Positions 20,346 through 43,091 of a DNA stretch of 64,000 nucleotides are shown piece by piece. Positions within the stretch are counted from its first letter, which is position 1; every line of letters starts with the position of its first letter. The stretch comes from Bacteroidia bacterium (GTDB taxonomy: Bacteria; Bacteroidota; Bacteroidia; Chitinophagales; UBA2359): the NCBI GenBank assembly GCA_030427245.1, contig JAUHXA010000001.1, positions 91,899 to 155,898 of the forward strand, in the 5' to 3' direction. The notes beneath the pieces are model-generated. The model was not told the DNA's origin, searched no databases, and saw only the letters and a program-made list of their open reading frames with translations. The translations under genes were made by a program, and so were the position numbers.

Positions 20346-20484
20346 TCAAAAAAATGAAAGAATCGCAAAGTATTTTCGGTTCATATACCTTTTTCAGTAA
20401 GAAATTTAGCATTTGTTTTCCGAGGTTTTGGGATAAACTAGTCAAAATTATGGTGCTGGCTGCGTCGGGTTAGGTTTAGGTAAA

Positions 20485-20833: not shown

Positions 20834-21706
20834 TTAGCTTTTTATAAAAAAAGGCTCTTCCAACCCTTTAGTATTTGTTTCAAGAACCAACACGCTTCCA
20901 GCAAGTGGCTGCTGTAACAATTGTTGTGCGCTCAAATCCATTCTTGCAGAAGTAATAAAAAGTTGATTCATAGCTGGGCCTCCAAATGTACAACTAGTGG
21001 GTTGTTGAACGGGTAGTTTGATGGTTTGGTCAATATTGCCATCTGGAGCATATCGAACAACTCGCCCTGTACCCCATTTTGCACTCCAAACAAAACCTTC
21101 TACATCAACTGTTAATCCGTCAGGTTCACTACCATCTGTATCCAATGCAAAAAATCTCTCATTTGTCATCATTCCTGTTTCTATATCAAAATCATAAGCA
21201 TAAATGCAATACTTGAAGGAATCTGTATAATACATGGTTTTATTATCTGGACTCCAGCCGATACCATTTGAGCATATAACTCCTTCTTTGAAGCTGTTGA
21301 TTGTCCCATTATTATCCAACTTGTATAATACACCTACTGGTTTGTCAAAATCATTATCAAGTGACCCCGCCCAAAATCGCCCCTTTCTGTCACATTTTCC
21401 ATCGTTGAACCTCATATTCGTTTTATTTTTTAGGGGATTTGCAATCGGCGTTATAGATTCTGTTACCAAGTTTATATAAGCAAATCCTATGTCTAGTGCG
21501 GCTACAATTTCATTATCGTTCGTAGTAAAGGCAAAACTGCCAATTTTATGTTCAAGCTTAATTTCACGGAAGGCATTGGTCTCAATATGTAAAGTATAGA
21601 TTGCAGGAGTTTCTATGTCAATCCAATATAAAGCTTGCTCTTTTACTGACCAAACTGGACATTCACCCAATATGTTTTTTGAACGATATAAACACTTAGC
21701 TTTCAT
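20834..21706 (-). CDS. SMP-30/gluconolactonase/LRE-like beta-propeller hydrolase
   Basis: The probable start is MKAKCLYRSKNILGECPVWS (21706); the ORF track extends to 21817. Typical family pieces are ECPVWS..ALYWIDI, RFNDGKCD..GRFW.GS and PDGLTVD.EG..W.A. Confidence 0.8.
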   Translation of the reverse strand: MKAKCLYRSKNILGECPVWSVKEQALYWIDIETPAIYTLHIETNAFREIKLEHKIGSFAFTTNDNEIVAALDIGFAYINLVTESITPIANPLKNKTNMRFNDGKCDRKGRFWAGSLDNDFDKPVGVLYKLDNNGTINSFKEGVICSNGIGWSPDNKTMYYTDSFKYCIYAYDFDIETGMMTNERFFALDTDGSEPDGLTVDVEGFVWSAKWGTGRVVRYAPDGNIDQTIKLPVQQPTSCTFGGPAMNQLFITSARMDLSAQQLLQQPLAGSVLVLETNTKGLEEPFFIKS

Positions 21707-21852
21707 GATTATTTTTATTCCTATATTTCTTGTTAAAAAACAATTCTTATTAGCTGAATCGTTATAAGCACTTCTATAAATGTCTAGTGCATTCCAAAGC
21801 AAAACACCTAATGCCACTACTCTAAATAGATGAACTGTTTGGAAGAGGTCTG

Positions 21853-22632
21853 CTAGCTAATTTGATAATCTATGTTTTGAAGGATTCGTTTTTTTGGTCT
21901 TTTTAGTGTGGGTTCATGGAAAAAACCAAAAAGAAATACATCTCGAATAGCAGGTTGAGTCGGGTCAATCGGATGTATAGGACTCACGCTGTGCATCACA
22001 TCAGGGTCCAGAAATATCATGGTATCCATAGGTTTCGTCAAGGTAAAGCGAGTAATTAAGTTTTTGTCATTATCATAAACTGCACTTTCTCCACCTTTTG
22101 CATTTTGGCGATTCATAAGATAAACAAAGCCAGATTCTCCACCATCTCGATGAATGCCCTCTGGAGTAGGTTCTCCCAATTCTTCCGCTGAAGCAATTAC
22201 TCTAACTAAATGAACTTCTACTTTCCACGGGGAATCGAGCAGTTCCTTCTTTTTGGCATCGGGGGTTTGCGCAAAACTGAATTTTATTAACTCCAGCATG
22301 AATTTATTCTCAATGGTACGTTTTTTCAAAGGTGGAAACTCCCGATTAATTCCTCCTGCATATTCGTTATCTTCCGCTGGTTGGAAAAACGGAACTTTTT
22401 CCATGACCTGTAAAATATCCTTGCTGGGATGGTAGTAAAAATAATTGAATCGTCGATAACGAAATTTTGAATTATTTTGTAAATAATTATCTAATGGTAA
22501 GTCCTCCCAATCTTTTTTGAAGGCTTCATAGTCTTCCCATAAGCCTTTATCAATAATCATTTTATCGGAAGGAATGCGGACGAATTTTTGGACGTCCAGC
22601 AGTTGACTGTATTTATTCTCAGTTGAAATCAT
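21853..22632 (-). CDS. 2OG-Fe(II) dioxygenase, PF10014-like (family of amino-acid hydroxylases such as L-Ile 4-hydroxylase)
   Basis: 259 aa. HxD facial-triad element in PEGIHRDGGESGFVYLMNR, with a distal His in DPDVMHSVSPI. Confidence 0.7.
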   Translation of the reverse strand: MISTENKYSQLLDVQKFVRIPSDKMIIDKGLWEDYEAFKKDWEDLPLDNYLQNNSKFRYRRFNYFYYHPSKDILQVMEKVPFFQPAEDNEYAGGINREFPPLKKRTIENKFMLELIKFSFAQTPDAKKKELLDSPWKVEVHLVRVIASAEELGEPTPEGIHRDGGESGFVYLMNRQNAKGGESAVYDNDKNLITRFTLTKPMDTMIFLDPDVMHSVSPIHPIDPTQPAIRDVFLFGFFHEPTLKRPKKRILQNIDYQIS

Positions 22633-22692
22633 CGTTGTATTTTTTCTTTAAATGTTAGAAATGTGGTCATTATCCTCGTTACTGAGCGGATG

Positions 22693-24879
22693 CTATTCTA
22701 TTACTGGATATTTAGGTTTACCATTCAGCAGAAGCTTTGGTTTTACTAGTGTAGGCAATGCTTCTTTCGAAGAGGTTTTGTGTTCATCAATATGTTTTTT
22801 AATTTCTGCTTTTCGCTTTTTTCGAACAGCCTCTTGATAGGCAATTAAAGGATGAATAGAGATGCCCATGCCAGCAGTCATACTAATCTGGTTAGCAATA
22901 ATAGCTGCCAGAATACCAAAATGAAAGAAAAATACCCCTCCAGTTACCAGTCCACTAATGGTAACTGCGGTGTAGAAATTACTTTTCATACTGGCATGAT
23001 ATTGTTTCCCTATTTCAAAAAGGAGTGGAAGCTGTCGAAGAGCCTCATCCATCAGGATAATTTGTGCGGTATCGGTAGCAATAGAGGTTGCTCCATTAAG
23101 CGAGATAGAGACATCCGCTTTTTTGAGCGCAATAGAGTCATTGATGCCATCTCCGACGAAGCAAACGGTCTTCTTCTCTTTGCGAAGTAAATCAACCAGA
23201 CTGGCTTTTTCAGCAGGCAATACCTCAGCATGATAAGTCTCAATACCCAACTCCCACGCCAGGCGACGAGTGGGAGAATGGTGGTCCCCCGAAATGATGA
23301 TACATTCTATGCCTCTATTTTGAAAAAACGATACTACTTGTTTTGCTTCAGGACGAATAGTGGGGCAAAGTTCAATGACTCCTTCCAGAACACCGTTGAC
23401 TGCCACGCATACCATGGAGTTCCCGTGTTCTTGCGCTTTTTCAGTGATGTCTTTTATATTTTCAGAAATAGAAATGTCATTAATTGCCATAAAACGGGCA
23501 CTTCCGATATGAATTTCATTCTCGTCCGCTTTTGCATAAATACCGTAACCGATTTCTATTTTTGTATGAACAACATCTGGTAATGGCAAACTTCGCTTTT
23601 CTGCCTCTTCCAAAATTGCCTGTGCAATCGGGTGAGACTGTCGGTATTCGGCTGCGGCAGCAAAAGTGAGCAGTTCATTTTCTGAAAATTGGTTGAGCAG
23701 ATGGATTTTTTCAACATTAGGCAAGTTGAGCGTGAGTGTTCCAGTTTTATCAAATACGATAGTGTCCACTTTGTGAAGCAATTCTAAAACTCTTCCATCC
23801 TTGATTAGTAATCCTTCTTGAGCAGCAATGGATAAATAATTTAGGACAATCATCGGCGAAATCATCCGTAAATTGAAGCCATAGTTGGAGTTCAAAAGTG
23901 CCACACTTCCTACTGGGCCTACGAATGGTAAGGCTGCTCCCGCAAATGCTAAAAGTGGCAGTGTGGTTTTGTCTGCTCGTTTTTGTCCTTCGGCAACCAT
24001 CTCATCCCGATAATCAAGCGAGTGATTTAAAGCATCACCGATTTGATAAACCACCATAGCTTTGCCTACTTTCTCAGCCCGAATGTGGACTTTGCCCTCT
24101 ACTAGCAAGGTAGAAGCAAAGCAAGTAGCGCCGATGCCCTTGTCAATGGGTTGTGATTCGCCAGTCAACATTCGTTCATCAATCATGGCTGCACCGTCAA
24201 TGATGACTCCATCTACTGGAATCGTCTGACCTGCATATACACTTAAGACATTTCCAACCTCCACTGAATCTAAAGGGATTTCAATCTCTACGCTTCCCTT
24301 CACCAACCAAACAGTGGCTGGCAAGTCCTCCATAATCTGATACATCTGGCGAAGGGAATGGTCTTCAGTTTTTAGCAATATTTTTCGATTGGTAAAATAA
24401 AGTGTACTATCAAAAAAGGCAGAAGCTATATATCCCGTCAGCAAAGTACCTGCGAAATTCACTAAATCCATCACCTCCAACACTATTTTTCGTTCTTCGG
24501 TAAGTGCTTTCCATGCTCTTTTGGTGAAAGGTAAAGCTGAATATATGGCAGGTGGAATTGCCAATATCAGCAACGGCGGATAAACCACATAACTCATCAG
24601 AGTAAAACCCATTAACCCTGCCGAAAGTACCAAATCACGGTCAATTGCTTTTTCTTCTTCGCTTTTTTCAATGCTGCCAAATTGCTGCAATTGCTGTTCT
24701 CGTTTATCCTGACGAATAGAAGAAATAAATGAATCTATTAGCTTGGGAGCCTCTTCTTCTTCTTGGCTGTTTGACCGAAGATGTCGGGATAGTTGTTGAG
24801 TTTTTTTAGAATGCTTTTCATGCAGTTCTTTTCCAAATGTATAAATACATCCTGCGATTATTGTTCCTGTTATAAACAT
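22693..24879 (-). CDS. P-type ATPase (P1B-like fold but without a recognisable CPx metal motif or N-terminal HMA domain)
   Basis: Motifs present: TGES (MLTGESQP), DKTGTLT and GDGINDS. I prefer the start at 24879 (MFITGTIIAG...), which avoids overlap with the upstream gene; the ORF track extends to 24990. Confidence 0.85.
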   Translation of the reverse strand: MFITGTIIAGCIYTFGKELHEKHSKKTQQLSRHLRSNSQEEEEAPKLIDSFISSIRQDKREQQLQQFGSIEKSEEEKAIDRDLVLSAGLMGFTLMSYVVYPPLLILAIPPAIYSALPFTKRAWKALTEERKIVLEVMDLVNFAGTLLTGYIASAFFDSTLYFTNRKILLKTEDHSLRQMYQIMEDLPATVWLVKGSVEIEIPLDSVEVGNVLSVYAGQTIPVDGVIIDGAAMIDERMLTGESQPIDKGIGATCFASTLLVEGKVHIRAEKVGKAMVVYQIGDALNHSLDYRDEMVAEGQKRADKTTLPLLAFAGAALPFVGPVGSVALLNSNYGFNLRMISPMIVLNYLSIAAQEGLLIKDGRVLELLHKVDTIVFDKTGTLTLNLPNVEKIHLLNQFSENELLTFAAAAEYRQSHPIAQAILEEAEKRSLPLPDVVHTKIEIGYGIYAKADENEIHIGSARFMAINDISISENIKDITEKAQEHGNSMVCVAVNGVLEGVIELCPTIRPEAKQVVSFFQNRGIECIIISGDHHSPTRRLAWELGIETYHAEVLPAEKASLVDLLRKEKKTVCFVGDGINDSIALKKADVSISLNGATSIATDTAQIILMDEALRQLPLLFEIGKQYHASMKSNFYTAVTISGLVTGGVFFFHFGILAAIIANQISMTAGMGISIHPLIAYQEAVRKKRKAEIKKHIDEHKTSSKEALPTLVKPKLLLNGKPKYPVIE

Positions 24880-24898
24880 GATTTTCGAATGATTAAAT

Positions 24899-26005
24899 CT
24901 AAGAATAAGATTGCAATGTCCCTGCTCTACGAACATCAAGGGTAGCACAATGAAAGCCACCAATAAAAGGATAGTAATCCTCAAAATCACAAGGAATAGG
25001 CTGAAAGCCCCAGTTTTTTAATGCTTTGATTAAAGGCGCTTGTCGTTTTTCTACCACGATGCGTTTTTCATCCAACATTAAAGTATTGATGCTGATCCAG
25101 TTGCTCATTAATTGAGGACGTGTTTTAAATGGAACTGGATTGGGAGCAATGAGAATGTCCCAATTTTTGAATATTTTAGGTAATTTATTCACATCCGTAA
25201 AGGTTGGATTGACCAATACCTTTCCAGGAGCTAATAAAGCCATCGTAGTATCTATGTGCATCGGCTTCGGGTCAAGACTCTGGATGAGATGAATTGTATA
25301 GTCCTCCCCTAAATGACGTTGCAGCCAATCCACCCCTGCCTGATTGGTGACATGACTAAGCTGACCAATAATATCTCGACCACATCTAATGAAATCCGCA
25401 GCATCAAAAACAGGTTCAATATTCGTTAAGACATAAGGTGTAGGTGAATCAGGAGCAGTATAATTTGGATTGTATAAATTATCTGACAACAAGGGTCTGG
25501 GAGCAGCTACGATATGTGCGCCACTGATAGCATACTCTTTCCAAAGTTTTCGATAAGCTCTGGTTTCAAAAAAACGGGAACGAGAACACATCGGCGTTTC
25601 AATAATTTGATTACCGATAACCATAAACAAGTCCCGAGGATTAGCGCCACAAAATCCCCCTTCTGTATCCCAAAGTGGCGTAGCAAATTTTTGATTATAA
25701 TTTACCTCTTCTATATCTCGTACTTTAACGCCTTCCGCCTCAAGAATATGGACAAATCGTTCTCTCGCCTTCAACGCCCGATTAATATACTCCTCAGGAT
25801 AAGGTTGTTTTAGTTTTAAAAATGGCTCTATCTTTTGTAGGTCTTTTTGGCTATATAAATAATTATCAGTAGGGTCTCCGGGTGAGAAAAAAGCATTTTT
25901 TGGCGTTCCAACAATAACTTCTTCCAAGGTATCCCATTCATTATGGGAGCTAACGGTACTGTGCTGACGTACATCTGTTTCGGCAATTGCTAAACCAAGT
26001 TGCAT
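24899..26005 (-). CDS. Amidinotransferase (glycine/inosamine amidinotransferase family: AGAT, StrB1, CyrA-like)
   Basis: 368 aa. The N-terminal SSHNEWDTLEEVIVG and the C-terminal active-site Cys context GGFHCATLDVRR are hallmark strings of this family. Confidence 0.85.
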   Translation of the reverse strand: MQLGLAIAETDVRQHSTVSSHNEWDTLEEVIVGTPKNAFFSPGDPTDNYLYSQKDLQKIEPFLKLKQPYPEEYINRALKARERFVHILEAEGVKVRDIEEVNYNQKFATPLWDTEGGFCGANPRDLFMVIGNQIIETPMCSRSRFFETRAYRKLWKEYAISGAHIVAAPRPLLSDNLYNPNYTAPDSPTPYVLTNIEPVFDAADFIRCGRDIIGQLSHVTNQAGVDWLQRHLGEDYTIHLIQSLDPKPMHIDTTMALLAPGKVLVNPTFTDVNKLPKIFKNWDILIAPNPVPFKTRPQLMSNWISINTLMLDEKRIVVEKRQAPLIKALKNWGFQPIPCDFEDYYPFIGGFHCATLDVRRAGTLQSYS

Positions 26006-26318
26006 AGTAGTATTTTTTATAAATTTTGTAAGTAGGTATTCATTATTCTTTTCACAAAATCAATATTGTGATTCTGCCACACTATTGAAGTAGCGAACTA
26101 CGAAAGCACTCATCAAATATTGTTTTTTCAACATGAGCCTGATTCTCAAAAAATGACAAAGTATCCGACCGCAAGCCAATCCGAAATATCTTACAACCCA
26201 CAATATCAGAAAAGGCGATATTTGCCAATTTGACATTCGTTCACTGCAATTGGATGAAATAGTTTTGTAGTATTTAATCGGGCACTCAAATACTAGGAAG
26301 AATGAACTAATAACTCTC

Positions 26319-28064
26319 CTACCTCTTTTTCGCAAAATTCCCCAATTTCACTTCCATCATAGCTGCCGCAGCCTCTTCTGCTTGAATATAGTGTTCGTCA
26401 ATTTCTTTTTCTGTTAATTCTGATAACTGTCCTTTCTCCATAAATAAAATACGGTCAGCAATATGCCAGTATTCTTTATCATGAGAAACCACAAAAACCG
26501 TTTTATTCCGAGCTTTCAATTTAGATAGGATTTTATAATAATAGACATCCCGAAACCACGGGTCTAAGTCTGCCGCTACTTCATCATAAATATAAATGTC
26601 TTTATCTTCTAATATGGAAGTTGCCAAAGCCAAGCGTTTTTTTTGTCCACTGGATAAACTTATATTGCTAAAACCACCCTTACGGAAAACGGTCTTTTCA
26701 GGAGGCAAGTCTAATTCTATCAAGAGTTTGTTGACAATATCCTCATCAATACCTTCTAATCCATATAGTTTATCAAAAAGATGAAAGTCTGTAAAAATAA
26801 GTGTAAATAGTTCTCGATATTGATCATAGCTAGTAACGTCAATGTGTGTACCCATCTCTCCTTTTTCGATATTCCTATCTATATAAATTGTTCCTTTTTT
26901 AGGCATATAAAGCCCTATAAACATTTTTAAGAATGTAGATTTACCAGAACCATTGCCCCCTGTAATGAATATGAGTTCGCCTTTTTGAATGCTTAAATTA
27001 ATAGGTCCAACACTAAAGGCATTATTATTATATTGATAGCTCAAATTGTGAAGTTCGATTTGGTTTTTAAAACTTAATTTTTCCAACTCGTAGTCCATAT
27101 TTGCTTTTGAGGAAGTTTGTTTGTTTTGTTTCAGTTTTTTATTCAATTCTTTCTCTAATTCCAAAATATTATAAGCAGCATTATCTGCAATAAAAAAATT
27201 AACACTAGCATTCAAGATGGCTTCCAAGGGGCCCAAGATAAAAAATATAACAGCGATGGTTTTAATAATAGAATCTGCTTGTTCTTCATGGTAAAAAGGT
27301 AAAACAAACACAAGAATACACAAGGTTACATAGATGCAAGCTTGTGCATACACAAATTTATTGTTGAACATTTTCATTACAGAAATTCTTAATCGACTTT
27401 TTTCACCCAAGACCTTGGTATAGGTAGCAAAAACACTATTGTTCTTTTTTCTATTCACTCTTATTTCCTTGAATCCACCCAAGATATGATTGAATTTTTC
27501 AAAAAACTCTTTCTCCTTAATAGATTGTGATTTCCAATATTGCACAGAACGTTCATTATCCTCCAAAAAATTATACACTGCTAATAATACCCCTAGAAAA
27601 ACTAGCCCAAAAGCTGCAGGAGAAATAAAAAGCAAATAAATTAACATGAAACACACCATAAAAGCGGTTTGTGTGTTCCAAATAATAGCCGCAGACATAT
27701 TTGAAATATCAAGTGAATCTTGGGTCAGCCTTGTATAAATAGAAGGTATGCCCACATCTTCTAAAGTTGCTAGTTCTGTTTGGCGTATTTTATCGGTAAT
27801 TCGATAACGAATTCGATAAACGATATTTTCCATGACCTCACAAGCCATGTCAAGCGTATATTTTTTTGACATTAAAAATAGAAAACAACAAAGGATATAA
27901 ATTACGAAATATCGTTGTTGTATATTGTTATTAGCTACATTTTCGGCAGCCGAATGAACTACTTCAACGAGCATTATATTAGACAACCCTGCCAGTAGAG
28001 TTAAACCTAACAATTTAGTTTTGTGTGGTTTTAATTCGGATTTAACCAATTGCAATAGTTTCAT
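26319..28064 (-). CDS. ABC exporter, fused permease-ATPase, cyclic-peptide/siderophore exporter type (SyrD/PvdE-like)
   Basis: 581 aa with six N-terminal TM helices. Walker A is GGNGSGKST, the signature is LSSGQKKRL, and Walker B is IYIYDEVAADLD. Confidence 0.8.
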   Translation of the reverse strand: MKLLQLVKSELKPHKTKLLGLTLLAGLSNIMLVEVVHSAAENVANNNIQQRYFVIYILCCFLFLMSKKYTLDMACEVMENIVYRIRYRITDKIRQTELATLEDVGIPSIYTRLTQDSLDISNMSAAIIWNTQTAFMVCFMLIYLLFISPAAFGLVFLGVLLAVYNFLEDNERSVQYWKSQSIKEKEFFEKFNHILGGFKEIRVNRKKNNSVFATYTKVLGEKSRLRISVMKMFNNKFVYAQACIYVTLCILVFVLPFYHEEQADSIIKTIAVIFFILGPLEAILNASVNFFIADNAAYNILELEKELNKKLKQNKQTSSKANMDYELEKLSFKNQIELHNLSYQYNNNAFSVGPINLSIQKGELIFITGGNGSGKSTFLKMFIGLYMPKKGTIYIDRNIEKGEMGTHIDVTSYDQYRELFTLIFTDFHLFDKLYGLEGIDEDIVNKLLIELDLPPEKTVFRKGGFSNISLSSGQKKRLALATSILEDKDIYIYDEVAADLDPWFRDVYYYKILSKLKARNKTVFVVSHDKEYWHIADRILFMEKGQLSELTEKEIDEHYIQAEEAAAAMMEVKLGNFAKKR

Positions 28065-28149
28065 TTTCTATTTTTTTTACATTTCTTTCAAACCTCCATG
28101 TAAAGACGATAAACGCTCGCCTCCTCTTATTAAACATTAACTCACCTCT

Positions 28150-28803
28150 TTACACCTTTTTTCCAAAAATGAGGCTTCCAATTCTAACCATCGTACTTCC
28201 CTCTTCTATCGCAATCTTATAATCGCCTGACATTCCCATAGAGATTTCTTTAAAATCACTCTTTTCTTCAAAAAACTCATTCCTTAAAGTTTTAAAAATA
28301 TGATTCAAGTACTGAAATTCGTTCTTAATCTGCTGGTGCTCTTTCGTGAAAGTTGCCATCCCCATTACACCGATGATATTAATATGTGCAAACTTTTTAA
28401 ATTCTTCAGATTTTAATAAGGTTCGAGCTTCTTCTAAGTCCAACCCAAATTTGCTTTGCTCCTCAGCAATATGAAACTGTAACAAGCAATCAATTACACG
28501 CTTTTCTTTTTGGGCTTGCTTATTAATTTCCTTCAATAAGTTCATACTATCAACACCATGAATGAGTTTTACAAATGAAGCAATATATTTGACTTTATTG
28601 CGCTGTAAATGACCTATGAAATGCCAATCAATATCTTTTGGCATGTGTTCATATTTAGTGACTAATTCTTGTACTTTATTTTCACCAAATATTCTTTGAC
28701 CTTGATTGTAAATTTTTAGAATCTGTTCTGGTGATTTGGTTTTAGAAACAGCCACTAATTGTGTATCTGAATGATTAAATTCAGCTAAAATTTGTTGTAA
28801 CAT
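28150..28803 (-). CDS. yggS: YggS-family pyridoxal-phosphate-binding protein
   Basis: LVAVSKTKSPEQI...GENKVQE...WHFIGHLQRNKVKYI...MGMSGDY...GSTMVRIGSLIFG. The likely start is MLQQILAEF at 28803; the ORF track extends to 28866. Confidence 0.85.
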   Translation of the reverse strand: MLQQILAEFNHSDTQLVAVSKTKSPEQILKIYNQGQRIFGENKVQELVTKYEHMPKDIDWHFIGHLQRNKVKYIASFVKLIHGVDSMNLLKEINKQAQKEKRVIDCLLQFHIAEEQSKFGLDLEEARTLLKSEEFKKFAHINIIGVMGMATFTKEHQQIKNEFQYLNHIFKTLRNEFFEEKSDFKEISMGMSGDYKIAIEEGSTMVRIGSLIFGKKV

Positions 28804-30163
28804 AAAGTGTAGAGTTTTGATAATTTGTAGATTGATCCCCATCAAGTAAATAGAGAAAATGGTCATATCTTTCTCCGAGAAACCCTTTAGCTTTCTCTAG
28901 CATATCATCCATAGTTAAATCAGTAGGATATAAATCGAATAAATCTGACTTTCTGTACAAAGGAAATACCAGTGTCATAATCAGCACATAAAATAGGTGA
29001 TGATCCACTTTATAAGACATTCGACGTTCAATAGACCACTCTGTTAGAATTGCCTCTTTATGCCTTTGCAATAACATCCAATGTGGAATGAAATAATTCC
29101 ACAATCGTTTACTAACAGATTTTATTTCTTGTTCAGATGCCGTTGGAAAATAGCCCAATAACAATTCATATAATGGGTCAAAACGAAGTAGATTGGATAA
29201 GGTATAATCTCCTAAAACACTGGGATAAGCATATTTAGATAACATTCGATAAGCCGTTGAGCCTAAATCTCTTAATACCTCCAATGCTTGGGCTTCAGGT
29301 GGACGTATTTCTAAAGGCAAGCTAGAGTCTAAATCCGTCAAATAAACCTGTTTAGTTGCTCTATTAAATTCAAAATTAGCCCAACCAGAAGCATGACGGA
29401 ATAAGCCTGCTGCTGAAAAATCATGAATTATTTTTCCTACCTGCCTAGCCATATAGGTTAGTGTTTTCAACCTAGTGGTTTCCAATTCGGGATTCCCATC
29501 AATATGAATAGCCGCTCGAATCTCATCATAATAAGCATCTGCATGAGAATCTAAACCTCGTTTAACTGCCTTTCCGAATTGAATAGTAGATAAACGTTCT
29601 CCTCTTGATTCTGGTGCAAGACAAATAACAGCCCCCATTGGTTCACCCTCAAATTGATAATTGTCACTAAAACGGACGACCATTAATGGTATCGTACAAG
29701 GCACACCATGACGATAGAGTTGAACTGCATTTTTATATTCTCTTAAAGCTCTTTCATACGTAATGCCACCTAGTGGCGCAGGCTTACTATAAGCTGTCGT
29801 ATACTCCCCTGTTACTGTTAATCCGAAATGGGGATAGGTTAATAAACTTTCAAAGGCAATTTCATTAGAAGGATATGTCGGTTTCTCAGCAATGGTTTGG
29901 TTAAGCGCATAATTGTATTTTTTAGTTTTACCTACTGGATTCCAGTAAGCTACGCCTTTCATTTTAGCTGCTCTTAAGATTGGATTTCGTGCGCCTTCTG
30001 CAAGGGCATCTTCTTTTAAAACATACCAAGCAGTCCGTCCCGGAGCTATAAAAGGCGGTACTTCTTCCCATTCTAAAAAGGCTAACAGTTGCTCATAATC
30101 TTTAGGAGATATGTGAACGCCATCAAATTGATGCGTTATCGTTACATTGTATTTTTTTTTCAT
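28781..30163 (-). CDS. Hypothetical 460-aa protein, possibly protein-kinase-like fold with atypical catalytic loop
   Basis: ERALREYKNAVQLYRHGVPCTIPL resembles the Kdo/WaaP/RIO-type helix-plus-strand segment. LFRHASGWANFEF....VYLTDLDSS resembles an HxDxxxxN...DxD arrangement with the Asp replaced. This is a weak, by-eye call only. Confidence 0.6.
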   Translation of the reverse strand: MKKKYNVTITHQFDGVHISPKDYEQLLAFLEWEEVPPFIAPGRTAWYVLKEDALAEGARNPILRAAKMKGVAYWNPVGKTKKYNYALNQTIAEKPTYPSNEIAFESLLTYPHFGLTVTGEYTTAYSKPAPLGGITYERALREYKNAVQLYRHGVPCTIPLMVVRFSDNYQFEGEPMGAVICLAPESRGERLSTIQFGKAVKRGLDSHADAYYDEIRAAIHIDGNPELETTRLKTLTYMARQVGKIIHDFSAAGLFRHASGWANFEFNRATKQVYLTDLDSSLPLEIRPPEAQALEVLRDLGSTAYRMLSKYAYPSVLGDYTLSNLLRFDPLYELLLGYFPTASEQEIKSVSKRLWNYFIPHWMLLQRHKEAILTEWSIERRMSYKVDHHLFYVLIMTLVFPLYRKSDLFDLYPTDLTMDDMLEKAKGFLGERYDHFLYLLDGDQSTNYQNSTLYVTTNFS

Positions 30164-30215
30164 GTTATATGTTTAGAAATAACCAAATAGTGTTCAATTA
30201 CTTTTCACTGTAGAA

Positions 30216-31190
30216 TCAATTACATAAACCTTTAACAGCCGCCTCCAAAACTTCCCAAGCAGCTTCTGCCATAGCATTGCCTTTGTCATCCTCTAATGGA
30301 TTGACTTCGCAGATTTCTAGGCAACAGACTTTGGGGTTATTCGTGAAAATGTACATCATATCAACCACTTCATTCAGATAAAAGCCATTGGGTTCTGGTG
30401 TGCCTGTTCCTTTTGAAACCACATCACAATCGAAACTATCTACATCAAAAGAGATAAACAACCTATCGCAATTTTTTAAGTGTTCATTTACAGCAGCAGT
30501 TAAAGCAAGGACACCTTGCGCCCGAACTTCTTCTACGCTATGCAATTGGATATTCAAATCCTTGATGATAATAGAATGTTCGGGTTTGAAATAACGAACA
30601 CCAATTAAGACCACATCTTCTGGTAATACTTTAGGAACAATACCTCCTAATTCTTTGAGGTGGTTCCATTGTCGCTGAATAGATATGGGTACGTCATTAG
30701 GTGCTTTATTCAATAGTTTTCTTGCTTCATCATCCAAAGCTAAGGAAACCCCCAAGGGCATACCGTGCATATTTCCCGAATAGGTTGTATAAGGAGCGTG
30801 CAAATCACTATGTGCATCTATCCAAATAATACCCAAACGATCTTCTGGATAAGCTTGCTTTATACCTGCAATGACCCCTGCAGCCGAAGAATGGTCAGCA
30901 GAGAGAACAATGGGAAAATGATTGTCCTCCAATACATCGGAAAGGGTATTACAAACTGTTTGACAATTTTCAAGTATATATTTTATTCGTTTTGCTTTTT
31001 CATAAGCTGGCTTTTTCTTTTTTTTAGATAAAATGCTATTTCGGTCAGGCAGTCTTACTATTTCTTTTCCTATAAAAAAAGAACTGCCCATCTTATCCGC
31101 TGCAAGTTTAATTGCTGCTGGACCTAAACAAGCACCACGTTTAGCACAACCCACTTCAGAAGGCACTTCGATAATTTTAAAGTTCTTCAT
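30216..31190 (-). CDS. Ureohydrolase (arginase/agmatinase/guanidino-acid hydrolase family)
   Basis: Mn-binding motifs SADHSSAAG, WIDAHSDLH and SFDVDSFDCD, followed by GTGTPEPNGF. Confidence 0.85.
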   Translation of the reverse strand: MKNFKIIEVPSEVGCAKRGACLGPAAIKLAADKMGSSFFIGKEIVRLPDRNSILSKKKKKPAYEKAKRIKYILENCQTVCNTLSDVLEDNHFPIVLSADHSSAAGVIAGIKQAYPEDRLGIIWIDAHSDLHAPYTTYSGNMHGMPLGVSLALDDEARKLLNKAPNDVPISIQRQWNHLKELGGIVPKVLPEDVVLIGVRYFKPEHSIIIKDLNIQLHSVEEVRAQGVLALTAAVNEHLKNCDRLFISFDVDSFDCDVVSKGTGTPEPNGFYLNEVVDMMYIFTNNPKVCCLEICEVNPLEDDKGNAMAEAAWEVLEAAVKGLCN

Positions 31191-31230
31191 AATACTTTTA
31201 TGATTTTATAATGGAGGACTATAAGATTTC

Positions 31231-31665
31231 TTATACCTTTTTTGAAAGTACTTTTAGCATTGCTTCAAGTGCAATAAAATAAGAATCTATCCCAAAACCT
31301 TGTATCATACCTAACGCAGCCTCGGACATGACTGAACGAATATTCCGCTGATCAATATTGGTTAGGTGAATTTCTATATAAGGTGGTTTGACATATTTCA
31401 AACAGTCTCTTAAAGCGTAAGCATTATAAGTAAAACCTGCTGGATTGGCTAGAATGCCATCTACACCTGCCTCTACACTTTCGTAAACCTTATTGATGGC
31501 TTCCCCTTCAAGGTTGGTATAGAAAATTTCTAAGTCATAGTTGAAGGATAGAGCATGCTGTTTTAAAAGCGTATCTAATTGTTCTGCTGTTGTAGCACCA
31601 TAGGTATTACCTTGTCTATTGCCTAAAGAATTTAGATTGGCACCTTGTACTAAAAGAAGTTTCAT
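31231..31665 (-). CDS. Type II 3-dehydroquinate dehydratase-like protein (divergent)
   Basis: 144 aa. QGANLNSLGNRQGNTYG corresponds to the GPNLN.LG.RE...YG motif, and IEIHLTNI to EVH.SN. The usual THTS segment reads TYNA here. Confidence 0.75.
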   Translation of the reverse strand: MKLLLVQGANLNSLGNRQGNTYGATTAEQLDTLLKQHALSFNYDLEIFYTNLEGEAINKVYESVEAGVDGILANPAGFTYNAYALRDCLKYVKPPYIEIHLTNIDQRNIRSVMSEAALGMIQGFGIDSYFIALEAMLKVLSKKV

Positions 31666-31669
31666 ATTT

Positions 31670-32647
31670 TTAATTGGTAGAGCTGACTACTGATTGGAAA
31701 CCAATATCCGCCAAAGTTTTATTTAATTGATTATTAGGAATTTGTTGAATAAAATTCAAACTCTCTGCACCATATCTATCCCAAATCATTTTTACCCAAC
31801 CTTGTTCCAAGTTTTTTCTCCCCGAATGCTTGAACAAATAAGCATATTCTGGTGAATTATCTAATTCAATCAAATCATGAAGATTAACAGACCCTAATTG
31901 AATATCTGTTCGCTTGTCGTGAAGTAAAGCCAAAAGGTCTGAAAGTTTGGTATTACCTCCGCCAAAACTATAGCCCTTGATAGAAGCATCTAAAAACTCA
32001 ACACCTGCTGAAAGAGCTGCTTTAACATTCTCAATTGCTAATCCTTGATTATTATGTCCGTGAAATCCAAGTGGCTTACCCCATATCTTCCCTAATAAAT
32101 CGAATATTTCAAAAGCACGGTCAGGTTGAAGTGTTCCTCTTGAATCTGCGATATAAAGCATATCTACACAATCTTTAGCCATCACTTTGTCCAACATCCA
32201 TAGAATCTCATCATTTGTAAAAGAGGTAATACTCGTAAAGTTGAAACTGGTAAATATGTCAAACTTTTTGACATTTGCTATCATCTCTAATTCCCGCTCA
32301 AAAGCCTCTTCGGTGCAGGCCATTCTAATCATATCTATATGGTCTGCTGTTTTTTCTAACATTTCCAGATAATTATCTCCATCATCAGACCGAAGCATGA
32401 CCGCCATTTTTGTTTCAGGACGCAATTTGCTTCTAAGTAATTTTAAATAACTTTCCGAACATTGCAGGGCAATCGGTTTGGTGGTATCGCTATGTAAATA
32501 ACCGACTTCGATAATATCAATGCCGATATGAGAAAGTGCTGTCACCATATTGATAATGTCTTGATTATCAAAATACCAGTCGTTTAAATAGCCACCATCA
32601 CGAATGGTTACATCAAGAATTACAGGTTTTTTATTAGGAATTATCAT
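31670..32647 (-). CDS. HMGL-like (pyruvate carboxyltransferase/aldolase TIM-barrel) enzyme
   Basis: N-terminal DVTIRDGGY (the D.T.RDG motif of the HMGL-like family), with a later HGHNNQGLA. Confidence 0.7.
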   Translation of the reverse strand: MIIPNKKPVILDVTIRDGGYLNDWYFDNQDIINMVTALSHIGIDIIEVGYLHSDTTKPIALQCSESYLKLLRSKLRPETKMAVMLRSDDGDNYLEMLEKTADHIDMIRMACTEEAFERELEMIANVKKFDIFTSFNFTSITSFTNDEILWMLDKVMAKDCVDMLYIADSRGTLQPDRAFEIFDLLGKIWGKPLGFHGHNNQGLAIENVKAALSAGVEFLDASIKGYSFGGGNTKLSDLLALLHDKRTDIQLGSVNLHDLIELDNSPEYAYLFKHSGRKNLEQGWVKMIWDRYGAESLNFIQQIPNNQLNKTLADIGFQSVVSSTN

Positions 32648-32708
32648 AAGTCGTATTTTTTTAAATGACTGAAATTTGATTTACACCCAACTAGGTAATT
32701 CATACTCA

Positions 32709-33626
32709 TCAACTAACCTCCCATTGACGCATATAATTCGCAAGCGTATTTGTAAATATATCGGATCTTCGGAGATCTGATTCTTTAGTATTCCATGCCC
32801 GGCAAGGACTTGTAATTAAATTGGGCAAGGCTTTATATTTATTATCTGGACGCATCAAATCAAGACAGGCAGCTGAAAGTTTACCGTTCTCTAAGGCCTT
32901 CTTTAAAGCATCAAATTCTATTAATTTTTCTGGACACACATTAATCAAAATAGCACCTGTTTTTATTTTAGAAAATGCCTGTTCATCAAGAATATGTTTT
33001 GAATAATCCGTAAGTGGTAGTACTAGAAAAATGACATCACTTTTTTTGAGTAAGGTATCTAAATCCGTTTGCTTTCCAAGTTCCGACATCATTTTAGTCC
33101 GTCGATGATAATAGACCTCCATGCCCAAGCCATTAAGTATTTTGGCTATTCGTTGCCCAATATCTCCAAAACCAATGATGCCTGCTTTTTTTTGATACAA
33201 TTCTATTGAAGGCTGTGCAAAAGAATAGAAATCGTTTTTTGTTATTTTGCCATTCAATGCAACTATATTTTTAGCGGCGGCCAGCATTAAAGCAACAGCG
33301 TGTTCTGCTACCGCAGGACCAGAAAACTTTGGTGTATTTAATATTTTGATTCCATTTTTTTGGCAATAAGATTTATCTATAAATGTCGTACTTGTCGTCA
33401 TCGTAATGATTAATTCTAAATGCGGCAATTTTTGTAAGTTGGTAGCATTCAAATTTAGATAACGTGCTATTAAAATTTGTGTATCTTGATGCCGATCCAA
33501 GACAGATGCCAAAGATGTCGCAACCGATTCGTCCTGCACCCAACTGACGACAATATTTGGAATATGGTCAAATAAACCCTCTGGAAAAGGAATTTTGTCA
33601 TTCAGAAATAAACACTTTTTAACCAT
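32709..33626 (-). CDS. D-isomer-specific 2-hydroxyacid dehydrogenase (NAD-binding)
   Basis: GIIGFGDIGQRIAKIL Rossmann motif. 305 aa. It overlaps the upstream methyltransferase gene by 8 nt. Confidence 0.8.
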   Translation of the reverse strand: MVKKCLFLNDKIPFPEGLFDHIPNIVVSWVQDESVATSLASVLDRHQDTQILIARYLNLNATNLQKLPHLELIITMTTSTTFIDKSYCQKNGIKILNTPKFSGPAVAEHAVALMLAAAKNIVALNGKITKNDFYSFAQPSIELYQKKAGIIGFGDIGQRIAKILNGLGMEVYYHRRTKMMSELGKQTDLDTLLKKSDVIFLVLPLTDYSKHILDEQAFSKIKTGAILINVCPEKLIEFDALKKALENGKLSAACLDLMRPDNKYKALPNLITSPCRAWNTKESDLRRSDIFTNTLANYMRQWEVS

Positions 33627-34251
33627 TCGTCAGTATTTTTTTTTGGGTATTAGGAATCGAAAAAGCCCAGTAATGAGCATCCGCTTCATTTCCTAGATAA
33701 GGTTTATTCATTCTCTTTTCTATTAACTTTAAATGCTTCATTTGTTCCATCTTTTTGTAATATCCCTCAAAGTCATAAGTATTACAATACGTTGTTTTTG
33801 TATTCATAATAATTAAACCGCCTGGTTTAGTTACTCGAATTAACCAATTTAAAGCTTCTGGCTTTACGAAATCAAGCGCAAACACCCCACAACAAATAGT
33901 AATATCGTACTGATTAAGTAGAAAAAACGGCAATTCCTTATTCAAATCACACCATCCGATAAGCGTTTGATAAGCTTTAGTTTGATAGGCTTCCAAGAGC
34001 ATTCCCTGAGAATAGTCAATGCCATCAAGATGTAAAAATCCTTCTCGTTTTAAGGCTTTTCCTACTAAACCTGTACCGCATCCAACATCCAATACTTTGG
34101 TAGCAGGATGATGTGGTACTATACTTGTCTTTTGAGCCGTCACCAGTTCTAAAAGAAAGGAAACCATATATTCAGGTCCTACATAGCCTCTTGCTCTTAC
34201 ATTTTTGTCATAATTTGGTGCAAACTCATCGTATTCTTCTTTTTTCCGCAT
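33619..34251 (-). CDS. Class I SAM-dependent methyltransferase
   Basis: Motif I is KVLDVGCGTGLVG, with post-I DGIDYS and motif II/III context ...KPGGLIIMN. Confidence 0.8.
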   Translation of the reverse strand: MRKKEEYDEFAPNYDKNVRARGYVGPEYMVSFLLELVTAQKTSIVPHHPATKVLDVGCGTGLVGKALKREGFLHLDGIDYSQGMLLEAYQTKAYQTLIGWCDLNKELPFFLLNQYDITICCGVFALDFVKPEALNWLIRVTKPGGLIIMNTKTTYCNTYDFEGYYKKMEQMKHLKLIEKRMNKPYLGNEADAHYWAFSIPNTQKKILTNG

Positions 34252-34296
34252 ATTTTTTTTTTGTAGCTATAAATTAGTGAAGTAGGAAATACATTT

Positions 34297-35907
34297 CTAC
34301 TTAAAACTTTCCTCATATCTTGATTTGCTGGCAGCAACACAAGGAGCAGGGGCATTCAAGACTTTCTTAGTTGCAGCTAGTGCTGTTTGAATAGCCCCTT
34401 GAATACAGCCATGAATAATGCCTAAATGTTCTCCTGCAAAAAAAACTCTTGGTGCTTCTTTAGGAAAGGGCTCCGTTAAAACTTTCTGGTATCTTTGATG
34501 TTCTCCTGGTCCAAAAAAGGCATGTGCCCCATAGCCAGGATTGGTCTGAGTATCCCAAGCTATTGAAACAGTTCCTTCCACATATTTTTCTATCGTAGGG
34601 TGAATTAGTTTTAATTCGTTCAGAATGAGTTCAACGCGCTCGCTTTCAGATAAAGTAGCAAATCGCAAAGCATTGTCTCCCCAAGCATAAGAAGCTAATA
34701 AAACCCCAGGCGAATGAGACCGTTCCTTATCTTTAACCTGTAGTTTTACCTTCGCTATTTCTGGAACAGCATATCCATTTCTTGAAGGAACATATTGTCT
34801 GTTTTTGGAAAGAGCAACATTATCAGAAGGATACCAACACTGTTGGAAAGATAAGTCTGAAAAAGAACCCCCGCCATAAATATGGTCATCAAATTCCCAC
34901 GGACGTTTTTTAACATGAAAAAACATTTTACTCGCATTTTCATAAGTAACTCCTCTAATCGCTTCTAATTTTCGAGAGGGAAGTGACGGTTGAAAATCCA
35001 TTTTCATCAAAGCGGGTAGAGGCACCGTCACAATGGCATAATCAAATACTGCTTGTTTATTGATGATACCTAATTGCTTCCAGAATAGTTTAGTTTTATT
35101 ACCTTCTACTTGTATTTTCTGTATTTTAGCATTACAAACAATATGGTTTTTTAAGCCTTTTACAAAGGCCTGAATAAGTGTCTCCATGCCTCCTACGATT
35201 TCCACTTTATCTCCATGAAGTACAGAAAAATGATCTAATATAATCGTCAAAAAGGACGCTTTCTTTTGATGCAACATACTAGTGGCAGCAGAAACATAAT
35301 CAATAGCTTCATCCGAAAGATGGGCGTGTAGTACCTGCCAAAGTGTTTGTTCTTCAAAACTTTTTAAAAGTGGGTTGCTAAAATCGGAGGCAAAAATTTG
35401 CCATTTTTCTTTATCTGATAAGCCGTCAATTGCTTTTTGTAAAATTTGGTCATAAAGTGCTATAGGCGATTTTTGTTCATGTATAGGAAGGTTAAATGCT
35501 GAGAGCAGTCGTTTCCAATGGCCAATACGTGTTTTGATGCCTCGGGCATAACAATATGCATTTTCATTATGGTTAATAAAAGGACGAGTTTTTAACCCAA
35601 ATTGCTCAATATAGTGTAAAACCATCTGATGATTAACAGGTATCCGCATTGCTCCTAATTCTCCATAGGTGCCATCACTAAAAAAATGAGTGTGAATTCT
35701 TCCACCAATTCGATTAGAGGCTTCAAAAATCTGAACCTCATGGCCTAGTTTTTTGAGTTCATAAGCTGCCACAAGCCCTGCTATACCTGCTCCCACAATA
35801 GCTACTTTTTTTCTTGGTTGATTGTTATCGTATTGAGCGATATTTTTAGGAAATGCAAAGAGGTGCTCAAAAGAGAATGATTTTCGTCCTATTTTATTAC
35901 TGTACAT
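34297..35907 (-). CDS. FAD-dependent amine oxidase / L-amino-acid oxidase family
   Basis: KVAIVGAGIAGLVAAYELKKLGHEVQIFEASNRIGGRI (dinucleotide-binding plus GG motif). The C-terminal FFAGEH is typical of flavin amine oxidases. Confidence 0.8.
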   Translation of the reverse strand: MYSNKIGRKSFSFEHLFAFPKNIAQYDNNQPRKKVAIVGAGIAGLVAAYELKKLGHEVQIFEASNRIGGRIHTHFFSDGTYGELGAMRIPVNHQMVLHYIEQFGLKTRPFINHNENAYCYARGIKTRIGHWKRLLSAFNLPIHEQKSPIALYDQILQKAIDGLSDKEKWQIFASDFSNPLLKSFEEQTLWQVLHAHLSDEAIDYVSAATSMLHQKKASFLTIILDHFSVLHGDKVEIVGGMETLIQAFVKGLKNHIVCNAKIQKIQVEGNKTKLFWKQLGIINKQAVFDYAIVTVPLPALMKMDFQPSLPSRKLEAIRGVTYENASKMFFHVKKRPWEFDDHIYGGGSFSDLSFQQCWYPSDNVALSKNRQYVPSRNGYAVPEIAKVKLQVKDKERSHSPGVLLASYAWGDNALRFATLSESERVELILNELKLIHPTIEKYVEGTVSIAWDTQTNPGYGAHAFFGPGEHQRYQKVLTEPFPKEAPRVFFAGEHLGIIHGCIQGAIQTALAATKKVLNAPAPCVAASKSRYEESFK

Positions 35908-40686: not shown

Positions 40687-40792
40687 TCTTAGATTTTTTT
40701 TTCTAAGATATTTTCATTTGCCTCGTAGATGAAAAAAAACAATGATTTTGGACTCTTTTAAGTCCCCATCAAATATGAATATATAACTCCTC

Positions 40793-43051: not shown

Positions 43052-43091
43052 TTCGTGATTGTTTAATAATAAAAAAATAGATGTGTTTGTT

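Follow-up and report, generated by a model that had tools for sequence, protein, structure and literature searches.

The 64-kb stretch of Bacteroidia bacterium DNA analyzed here (contig JAUHXA010000001.1; hereafter the window) carries 13 consecutive minus-strand open reading frames (ORFs) that run from position 35907 down to 20834 and form a real, rare, uncharacterized and mosaic gene cluster. The reading that we prefer, tentatively and at slightly less than an even chance, is that these genes encode one operon-like, specialized small-molecule pathway put together from three recombined modules in a marine-type Bacteroidota host of the Saprospirales/Chitinophagales type. The analysis shows the order and the families of the genes, catalytic motifs that are intact in four enzymes (amidinotransferase, arginase, dehydratase and aldolase), the recurrence and recombination of the modules and the lack of a known counterpart. 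An earlier reading of the same DNA, made from its letters and ORFs (the sequence-only reading), had proposed a pathway derived from arginine. In outline this is plausible from the enzyme families present, but the specific β-methylarginine chemistry that it invoked found no support. Our best guess for the product is a polar, cationic compound that is exported or osmolyte-like.

The ORF list of the window agrees with the tightly packed 13-gene set that the sequence-only reading placed at 20834-35907, and Pfam, NCBIfam and Protein Data Bank (PDB) searches confirmed all 12 of the protein families that it had named. In transcription order the genes encode an oxidase, a methyltransferase, a 2-hydroxyacid dehydrogenase, an HMGL-like aldolase, a dehydroquinase-like protein, an arginase-like enzyme, an orphan protein, YggS, an ABC exporter, an amidinotransferase, a P-type ATPase, a PF10014 dioxygenase and an SMP-30 lactonase. 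With starts corrected, neighboring genes overlap or lie 4-146 nt apart, the sole exception being a gap of 313 nt. Specifically, the oxidase gene is followed after 45 nt by the methyltransferase gene, which overlaps the dehydrogenase gene by 8 nt; the gaps leading to the aldolase, dehydroquinase-like, arginase-like and orphan genes are 61, 4, 40 and 52 nt, the orphan and YggS genes overlap, and the ABC exporter gene begins 85 nt further on. The 313-nt gap separates the exporter and amidinotransferase genes, after which 16 nt (corrected start) lead to the P-type ATPase gene, 60 nt to the PF10014 gene and 146 nt (corrected start) to the SMP-30 gene. These corrections concern three genes whose mechanical ORF starts were most likely placed too far upstream. 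The most likely starts are 24882 for the P-type ATPase, 21706 for SMP-30 and, from a gene call on an identical contig, near 28803 for YggS. The one long gap is occupied by a hydrophobic, basic ORF of 59-91 amino acids (26060-26335, minus strand), which may be spurious.

A terminator-like hairpin on the minus strand (20489-20517; a 13-bp stem followed by T8) lies 320 nt past the last gene, within a repeated element of ~335 nt, and probably ends the transcription unit of the cluster; no internal terminator of comparable strength was found within the 13-gene set. All ORFs of at least 150 amino acids between ~13.5 and 48.1 kb lie on the minus strand, as do five of six between 11.7 and 13.5 kb, so that shared strand alone is not distinctive. 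The true operon signal is the close spacing together with the one strong terminator hairpin. The G+C content of the cluster is the same as that of its flanks, giving no base-composition sign of horizontal transfer, and no Rfam match to a riboswitch or other RNA leader, such as a guanidine riboswitch, was obtained. Counts from a sigma-70 promoter scan were not above those in shuffled sequence, and this model, which is unsuited to Bacteroidota, was left unused. The cluster is, as previously proposed, free of nonribosomal peptide synthetase (NRPS) and polyketide synthase (PKS) genes: no KS, AT, ACP, AONS, condensation or adenylation domain was detected in the window ORFs of at least 150 amino acids. 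Also in line with the sequence-only reading, we found no characterized match to the set, and nine window proteins present in a collection of 15 billion proteins were all (9/9) singletons at 90% identity.

Synteny was analyzed around the orphan (46 loci, one genome per species), around the HMGL-like protein (80 loci, metagenomes) and around homologs of the amidinotransferase and the oxidase. The sequence-only reading had counted on the set being syntenic in relatives; the full 13 genes were together at none of the loci anchored on these four proteins. Instead, our comparisons point to a mosaic: three modules make up the locus, and each of them recurs separately elsewhere. Distant HMGL-like relatives (~30% identity) had no neighbors in common with the window, and literature searches on the gene combination, the orphan cluster family and the Lepto7376 locus tags returned nothing relevant.

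Module A consists of the orphan and YggS together with the small methyltransferase, the 2-hydroxyacid dehydrogenase and a P-type ATPase that lacks the metal-binding cysteines (Cys-less). It is found in at least five phyla, often beside MscS. In Calothrix, Leptolyngbya PCC 7376, Thiohalocapsa, Nannocystaceae, Plesiocystis and a Saprospiraceae metagenome-assembled genome (MAG), the recurrent orphan-YggS cluster contains a class III aminotransferase, short-chain dehydrogenases/reductases (SDRs), PhyH, an MBL lactonase or AXE1 esterase, two methyltransferases, a 2-hydroxyacid dehydrogenase and a heme-oxygenase-like protein, often with MscS and sometimes with the Cys-less ATPase. Minimal sets occur in Bacteroidota, with an orphan-SET fusion plus YggS in locus L050 and the order ABC-PhyH-orphan-SET-YggS in L006. 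The PhyH protein beside the orphan-SET gene of L006 (1210-2412) resembles carrier-independent, SyrB2-type "chlorinating enzymes" (TIGR01762, 115 bits, under the cut-off). Module B comprises the oxidase, aldolase, dehydroquinase-like and arginase-like genes, and two metagenome contigs preserve it with identities of 58-72%. In one (L137) the order is HMGL (63%)-dehydroquinase (72%)-oxidase (58%)-arginase (70%), followed by genes for an FrhB-like protein, a BCCT transporter and an AraC regulator, and in the other (L054) HMGL, dehydroquinase and arginase genes stand together at 61-67% identity. Per protein, identity to the two contigs is 61-63% for the aldolase, 63-72% for the dehydroquinase-like protein and 61-70% for the arginase-like enzyme. 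Module C combines the SxtG-like amidinotransferase, the ABC exporter, PF10014 and SMP-30. In its nearest relative, L139, which belongs to the same MAG as L006 (Chitinophagales SGMAG-61), the amidinotransferase (88%), a P-type ATPase (46%), SMP-30 (91%) and YggS (68%) lie in a row; L052 holds a trio of PF10014 (59%), an APH kinase and the amidinotransferase (81%), and in L051 and L053 homologs of the amidinotransferase and the ABC exporter lie within NRPS clusters.

Two orphan operons, L009 and L010, contain the Cys-less P-type ATPase; in L002 it stands next to the orphan, and in L134 a distance of 6 kb separates it from the amidinotransferase. Modules A and C are tied together by L139, L006, L009, L010, L002 and L134. 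In the window the modules follow one another in the transcription order B-A-A-B-B-B-A-A-C-C-A-C-C, and this interleaving favors a single pathway. A separate observation concerns L051 (Lewinellaceae, JACJYN010000003.1), where DUF697 genes like those just upstream of the window cluster flank a different, NRPS-based cluster that carries an amidinotransferase of 76% identity along with MbtH, a PPTase, an FMO, two ABC exporters and a desaturase, which suggests a conserved chromosomal site with swapped cluster content.

The anabolic, exporting character ascribed to the locus by the sequence-only reading is borne out by an amidinotransferase with intact Cys, His and Asp, an S-adenosylmethionine (SAM)-dependent methyltransferase and an ABC exporter of the SyrD/YojI type. 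The last (26319-28064; this and all genes of the set are on the minus strand) is a fused permease/ATPase of the "cyclic peptide exporter" type that scored 288 bits with PRK10522 and 257 bits with TIGR01194, both under the cut-offs. It is 61% identical to the ABC protein of L006 and 43-45% identical to the products of the two amidinotransferase-adjacent ABC genes of L051. The predicted L-arginine-dependent amidinotransferase (24899-26005) is SxtG-like; over residues 13-367 it matched SxtG (6u1r; 1e-134, ~58% identity), HsvA (2.5e-92), AGAT (3e-84) and StrB1 (2e-63). Its catalytic motifs are conserved relative to SxtG, with Cys in FHCATLD, His in MHIDTT and Asp in FDAADF and ANPRD, and the SxtG pocket residues E58/E59 are replaced by K/D (residue roles in the SxtG family follow PMC12371840). 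Relatives of this protein are located in secondary-metabolite clusters.

The PF10014 protein (21853-22632) is an Fe(II)/2-oxoglutarate dioxygenase of the free-amino-acid hydroxylase family (Pfam 2OG-Fe_Oxy_2, 2e-59). Its top PDB match was 9dqp (3e-62), with isoleucine 4-hydroxylase and TqaL at ~1e-10, and literature searches on 9DQP and on PF10014 substrates returned nothing relevant. The last gene (20834-21706) encodes a putative lactonase of the SMP-30/gluconolactonase/LRE hydrolase family (Pfam SGL, 1.1e-82). Between these two genes lies a 77-nt relic of a different P-type ATPase gene (21750-21826, minus strand), 88% identical in nucleotide sequence to positions 1707-1783 of L139, which fall inside the P-type ATPase gene of that locus; the relic makes up the N-terminal 37 codons by which the mechanical SMP-30 ORF is too long. 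Its survival points to a recent exchange of the ATPase/PF10014 segment, that is, a cassette replacement, between flanks that are 88-91% identical.

The core of module A is the 460-residue orphan (28781-30163). As the sequence-only reading had it, this protein has no sequence match in Pfam, NCBIfam or the PDB; it is, however, no isolated protein, having a divergent protein-kinase-like fold and a YggS partner in a widespread cluster family. Its AlphaFold2 model (pLDDT 90) matched SelO/YdiU, PRPK, WaaP and kinases in Foldseek, with E values of ~1e-5, a probability of 1.0 and TM scores of 0.35-0.39. Invariant residues include K67, K69, E142, N263, D277 and D279. The HRD/HxD aspartate is missing, with no conserved Asp five residues before N263 in 27 of 27 aligned sequences, in which the loop reads GL(Y/F)R(Y/H)xxxWxNF. 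The model, with Lys, Glu, Asn and Asp invariant and the HRD aspartate absent, suggests an atypical ATP-using transferase. Homologs are few, numbering only 69 among 5.8 billion clusters with no match in a plasmid collection, and the nearest of them (52-56% identity, Bacteroidota) bear a C-terminal SET domain. The partner, a PLP-binding protein of the YggS/PLPBP family (28150-28803), scored 187.8 bits with TIGR00044 against a cut-off of 106.25. YggS adjoins the orphan in 26 of the 46 genome loci, and all nine of the orphan-linked YggS neighbors tested passed the same model (161-227 bits). In humans YggS corresponds to PLPBP, a protein of unsettled biochemical role that is linked to vitamin-B6-dependent epilepsy.

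Two further genes are of module A type. The small class I SAM-dependent methyltransferase (33619-34251; 210 amino acids; Pfam Methyltransf_25/12/31/11) carries the SAM motif VLDVGCGTG. The analogy to β-methylarginine formation by MrsA/ArgN-type enzymes finds no support in this protein, which is a generic class I enzyme: METTL27 was its sole PDB match at 1e-6 (1.4e-18), and its NCBIfam matches were to generic class I models only, all under their cut-offs. It groups with the orphan-adjacent methyltransferases of L010, L024, L035 and L047 (28-32% identity), and the clusters of these recurrent relatives show no link to arginine. The D-isomer-specific 2-hydroxyacid dehydrogenase (32709-33626; Pfam 2-Hacid_dh_C, 7e-39) belongs to a family also present in the orphan clusters L024, L029, L047, L037 and L038 (~26% identity).

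The P-type ATPase (22693-24882) is P1B-like, and here the family call of the sequence-only reading stands: its core matches Pfam E1-E2_ATPase and Hydrolase, carries DKTGT and scored 379 bits with TIGR01525 against a cut-off of 346. That reading had not anticipated that the protein comes from a clade in which the CPx metal site is missing, or that it is part of the YggS cluster family. It has no N-terminal metal-binding domain, and its transmembrane motif is SPM at the position expected for CPC. Homologs tied to the orphan or the amidinotransferase (L002, L009, L010, L134 and L139; 36-58% identity) carry APM or APV, whereas unrelated ATPases in other loci carry CPC. The Cys-less clade (P0316-P0465) spans at least 150 clusters at 50% identity (E < 1e-126), in which CPx is replaced by APL, GPL, API, SPM and similar motifs; among the 147 closest 50%-cluster representatives checked, not one carries a CPC, CPH, SPC or PCP motif of the canonical kind or an N-terminal CxxC. 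NCBIfam still labels these proteins heavy-metal ATPases, and the clade is probably misannotated. The contexts of the kinase-like orphan and of this ATPase probably alter what the core of the pathway is likely to be.

Module B opens with an FAD-dependent oxidase (34297-35907; Pfam Amino_oxidase, 2.4e-64), whose closest solved relatives are L-amino-acid oxidases of the snake-venom type (5e-56); by sequence it resembles an L-amino-acid oxidase rather than an amine oxidase. The Arg of LGAMRIP and a Tyr align, tentatively, with what we take to be Arg90 and Tyr372 of the Calloselasma oxidase, the Arg presumably binding carboxylate. The protein has no signal peptide and is therefore probably cytoplasmic; the idea of a secreted oxidase was dropped on this ground. 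The HMGL-like metal-dependent aldolase/synthase (31670-32647; Pfam HMGL-like, 1.2e-22) had as its top PDB match the "putative aldolase" 3dxi (6e-26), followed by citramalate and homocitrate synthases and DmpG. In the plasmid collection it matched only DmpG-type genes, the best annotated of which were DmpG at 30% identity. The metal ligands (RDG..., HGH) are kept in the motifs RDGGY and GFHGHNNQ. The corresponding motifs are RDGxH in DmpG and RDGEQ in isopropylmalate synthases. Because RDGGY replaces RDGxH, the protein appears to form a separate subfamily, nearest to the uncharacterized 3dxi.

The dehydratase (31231-31665; Pfam DHquinase_II, 5e-38) is similar to type II 3-dehydroquinate dehydratases, although its NCBIfam scores straddle the cut-offs (130.2 versus 130, 138 versus 146 and 128 versus 170). 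The catalytic Arg, Tyr, Asn, Glu, His and Arg match those of the Helicobacter pylori enzyme, and the substrate-binding His82 is replaced by Tyr. Its conserved neighbors are the aldolase, oxidase and arginase genes, not genes of the shikimate pathway. The ureohydrolase of the arginase family (30216-31190; Pfam Arginase, 3.8e-48) is arginase-like rather than agmatinase-like. It scored 189 bits with TIGR01229, under the cut-off of 227.6, and has an insertion of ~20 residues; all of the Mn-ligand motifs (DHS, DAHSDLH and SFDVDSFD) are present, as is the arginase-type GNMHGMP (GNxHGMP).

From the chemistry of these families we infer a pathway that would lead from free L-arginine, and ornithine derived from it, through a γ- or δ-hydroxylated 2-oxo acid to a small, polar, cationic guanidino/hydroxy-acid product, which would then be exported or released. 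PF10014 enzymes hydroxylate free L-amino acids at the γ or δ carbon, and isoleucine 4-hydroxylase is a solved relative of the window protein, which would likewise act on a free amino acid. Since such hydroxy acids lactonize, the adjacent SMP-30 lactonase would have a role in opening the γ-lactone; the PhyH-lactonase neighbors in L008 and L049 parallel this pair. The L-amino-acid oxidase would convert the hydroxylated amino acid to a 4-hydroxy-2-oxo acid, the substrate class of DmpG-type aldolases. Alternatively, the aldolase may join pyruvate to the 2-oxo-acid product of the oxidase. Either route would yield C(OH)-CH2-C(=O), the local motif dehydrated by dehydroquinase-type enzymes, and the aldolase and the dehydroquinase-like dehydratase could thus carry out aldol and β-elimination chemistry on a C(OH)-CH2-C(=O)-COO- motif. 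The D-2-hydroxyacid dehydrogenase would reduce the 2-oxo group, after which the methyltransferase would methylate the product. The arginase-like enzyme would strip a guanidino group as urea, and the SxtG-like amidinotransferase would place one on a pathway amine with arginine as donor. The kinase-like orphan may provide ATP-dependent activation in concert with YggS and its PLP, and the ABC exporter and the Cys-less P-type ATPase may move the product or a counter-ion.

Several observations weigh against a single pathway of this kind. No searched genome holds the whole set, and its unity comes from the layout in this window and from pairwise links. Module B is tied to A or C in this window alone, the 313-nt gap divides the set into nine and four genes, and the links of the methyltransferase and the 2-hydroxyacid dehydrogenase to module A are at the level of family only (26-32% identity). 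Arginine as the scaffold is suggested only by the amidinotransferase, with arginine as donor, and by membership of the arginase-like family; no substrate specificity is derivable for the oxidase, dioxygenase, methyltransferase or aldolase, and we know of no enzymatic activity for YggS. Some contexts also look catabolic. In Stappia and Mesorhizobium the orphan-YggS pair adjoins LysR, a TRAP transporter and an IlvD/Edd dehydratase, and in L137 module B stands beside an uptake-type BCCT transporter and the AraC regulator, for which reason a role of this module in catabolism or osmolyte turnover deserves consideration. The 13 genes might accordingly be chance neighbors: a catabolic oxidase/aldolase/dehydratase/arginase unit whose substrate would be a guanidino or hydroxy amino acid, an orphan-YggS pair of housekeeping character and a small amidinotransferase unit. 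In keeping with this, each module also occurs alone elsewhere, orphan-SET plus YggS is flanked only by housekeeping genes in L050 and L007, Thioploca has a lone amidinotransferase, and the uniform strand over ~13.5-48.1 kb would place unrelated genes in the same orientation. We nevertheless regard separate units as unlikely. The modules are interleaved rather than arranged in contiguous blocks, the gaps at module junctions are 45-85 nt with no strong terminator between them, L139 unites the amidinotransferase, P-type ATPase, SMP-30 and YggS in one run, the set has no uptake transporter or regulator, and the amidinotransferase and methyltransferase are anabolic enzymes.

A second alternative overlaps the single-pathway reading and differs from it only in the role of the product: the locus could belong to a system for a compatible solute, or a releasable cytoplasmic solute, in which a methylated or guanidino amino-acid derivative serves as an osmolyte released through channels or exporters and not as a toxin or antibiotic. 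Transporters near the relatives are consistent with this. Members of one MscS subfamily lie in or next to the orphan clusters L003, L004/L048, L024, L029 and L047, with the Bacteroidota and Myxococcota copies 42% identical, and another MscS gene adjoins the orphan in L049. L035 has an EamA exporter and L002 a Na+/H+-antiporter-like gene, the BCCT transporter adjoins module B in L137, and the window itself has an MscS gene 7 kb upstream. Some ectoine clusters likewise include an MscS gene. Most of the host bacteria live in the sea (Stappia, Plesiocystis, Leptolyngbya PCC 7376, Thiohalocapsa, Microscilla, Bernardetia and Kentron). However, the 13-gene set itself contains neither MscS nor BCCT, and its transporter is an ABC exporter of the type usual with peptides and siderophores; MscS genes are common, and their enrichment rests on ~4 independent lineages. 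Osmolyte pathways usually occur widely, in contrast to this very rare locus, and no known osmolyte is made by such a set of enzymes. On balance we assign the osmolyte role a low probability. Least probable is an arginine- or ornithine-built metallophore exported by the ABC pump with the P-type ATPase handling the metal: the SyrD/PvdE/YojI-type exporter, the above-cut-off match to the TIGR01525 "heavy metal P-type ATPase" model and a hydroxy-acid plus amino-acid chemistry that fits chelators speak for it, but neither the window ATPase nor any of its 147 best relatives checked has the canonical CPx cysteines or an N-terminal CxxC domain, TonB-dependent receptors and importers are absent from the cluster (the closest receptor of this type is 25 kb away), and the cluster contains no hydroxamate-, catechol-, opine- or nicotianamine-type enzyme.

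A broader and rather speculative extension, which we think more likely wrong than right by a wide measure, is that the kinase-like orphan and YggS form an unrecognized two-protein catalytic unit, combining ATP activation with PLP chemistry, that heads cationic-metabolite or osmolyte pathways across phyla. Such pathways would have their own MscS subfamily and Cys-less ATPases that pump an organic cation rather than a metal, and the window would hold the arginine/guanidino version. If the 13 genes do form one pathway, the product would be a new guanidino/hydroxy-acid metabolite from the Saprospirales group, which is chemically little explored, and the locus would be a worked example of cluster assembly from recombining submodules. 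The most interesting parts are the kinase-like/YggS pair, the Cys-less ATPase clade and the oxidase/aldolase/dehydroquinase-like/arginase module. The first makes a rare kinase-like protein a conserved genomic partner of YggS/PLPBP, the second is a large "heavy-metal" P-type ATPase clade without metal-binding cysteines whose annotation is probably wrong, and the third, a conserved four-gene module, suggests a new use of the dehydroquinase fold.

The surroundings of the cluster show further features. The ~335-nt element that contains the terminator hairpin forms a direct repeat (20482-20816 and 40370-40695; ~93% identical) bracketing a 19.5-kb segment with Band7, three DUF697 genes and the 13-gene cluster. 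Core copies also occur at 20297, 40297 and 48152, and the window has five copies of a 21-nt piece of the ~60-nt core, where 0.02 would be expected. In coding-strand orientation the element consists of the core, ~230 nt and then a strong hairpin with T8 (fold z-score -2.84); it has no Rfam family match and resembles a small RNA gene or a promoter-terminator cassette. One core copy lies 32 nt upstream of the ATP-grasp operon, a second tight gene set upstream of the cluster (42191-48120, minus strand) that encodes YheC/D-like and RimK-like ATP-grasp ligases, a GCS2-CBS fusion in which GCS2 is glutamate-cysteine-ligase-like, MscS and an NmrA-like reductase. This set could be a peptide-like solute pathway; in Scytonema (L138), a GCS2 gene adjoins an oxidase homolog. 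Just past the cluster terminator, 19756-20097 holds a truncated methyltransferase-like ORF of 113 amino acids with a weak Methyltransf_25 match. Beyond it, a stand-alone SET-domain protein (18856-19347, minus strand; Pfam SET, 4.8e-10) is 26-27% identical to the SET domains of the orphan fusions and might be an accessory gene, but the terminator and repeat elements lie between it and the cluster, and its link to the cluster is uncertain. Three paralogous TPR-CHAT proteins of ~975 amino acids flank the region (15805-18738, 51042-53966 and 54049-56964), the left end of the window (238-4293) encodes a 1351-residue adenylate/guanylate cyclase-AAA-TPR protein, and T9SS sorting domains are present among the window proteins. 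Together with the closest homologs, at 88% identity in a Chitinophagales MAG and 76% in a Lewinellaceae genome, these domains assign the window to the Bacteroidota, order Saprospirales/Chitinophagales.

We compared the locus with known systems. Arginine catabolic loci are defined by astABCDE, by arcABC or by aruHI/kauB/gbuA, with uptake and regulator genes. A match to such a locus, which the sequence-only reading had held would speak against it, was not found: all that the set has of the succinyltransferase, deiminase and transaminase/oxidase-guanidinobutyrase routes is an arginase-like enzyme and an L-amino-acid oxidase. Pfam and NCBIfam detected no succinyltransferase, deiminase, carbamate kinase, aldehyde dehydrogenase, importer or regulator among the 13 genes, and since these defining enzymes are absent the set does not fit the known catabolic loci. 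Nor does the locus fit the ectoine pathway: the window has no match to the ectoine-synthesis enzymes EctA, EctB and EctC, and relatives show only a PhyH protein that matches ectoine hydroxylase weakly (73 bits; cut-off, 336) and a HemL/GntE-like aminotransferase. A guanitoxin-like reading of the orphan clusters was dropped because, in an NCBIfam search of ten neighbor proteins, only the GntE-like aminotransferase matched, below threshold; neither the orphan nor the di-iron protein matched a Gnt model.

Similarity to the saxitoxin and cylindrospermopsin pathways (SxtG, CyrA) lies in the amidinotransferase, which is aligned with SxtG over its full length and for which arginine is the presumed amidino donor. 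The window, in a Bacteroidota host, encodes neither a PKS-type partner (SxtA or CyrB-E) nor a Rieske oxygenase, and the acidic pocket of SxtG is altered; given that no PKS is present, the locus does not fit these clusters. The hydroxylase and PLP routes VioC/VioD, GntB/GntC and MppP/MppR/MppQ (in part after PMC12371840) resemble the proposed pathway in that a basic amino acid is first oxygenated and PLP-assisted chemistry comes next, and a 4-hydroxy-2-oxo-guanidino acid is a plausible common intermediate. Their enzymes, however, are not homologous to those of the window, where the hydroxylase is of the PF10014 family, YggS (fold type III) is the sole PLP protein and the oxidase depends on FAD rather than PLP, and for this reason the locus does not fit the hydroxylase and PLP-cyclase routes either.

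Two further systems offer chemical parallels. As in DMSP synthesis by transamination, in which Met is converted to MTOB, D-MTHB and DMSHB and DsyGD is encoded beside a predicted reductase (PMC11306096), the window pathway would pass from amino acid to 2-oxo acid to 2-hydroxy acid to SAM-dependent methylation, with adjacent methyltransferase and reductase genes and an osmolyte context. There is, however, no DsyD-like decarboxylase, and the guanidino enzymes would be unexplained; the DMSP-type reading was kept only as a chemical analogy. In DmpE/DmpG meta-cleavage and in HMG/CHA aldolase systems an HMGL-fold enzyme is also paired with a β-hydroxy-ketone dehydratase. In the window this partner adopts the dehydroquinase II rather than the fumarylacetoacetate-hydrolase fold, and there is no acylating aldehyde dehydrogenase.

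A further comparison is with the orphan-YggS cluster family, represented by the Lepto7376_3946 neighborhood in Leptolyngbya sp. PCC 7376, Plesiocystis pacifica SIR-1, Calothrix MO_192.B10 and Thiohalocapsa PB-PSB1. Those clusters differ in using a class III aminotransferase, PhyH, SDRs, a heme-oxygenase-like di-iron protein and MscS, and they have no amidinotransferase, arginase, L-amino-acid oxidase, aldolase or dehydroquinase-like gene. Several of their components are nonetheless analogs of window genes, with PhyH in place of PF10014, the MBL lactonase or AXE1 esterase in place of SMP-30 and the class III aminotransferase in place of the oxidase. Five genes are held in common, namely those for the kinase-like orphan, YggS, the methyltransferase, the 2-hydroxyacid dehydrogenase and the Cys-less ATPase.

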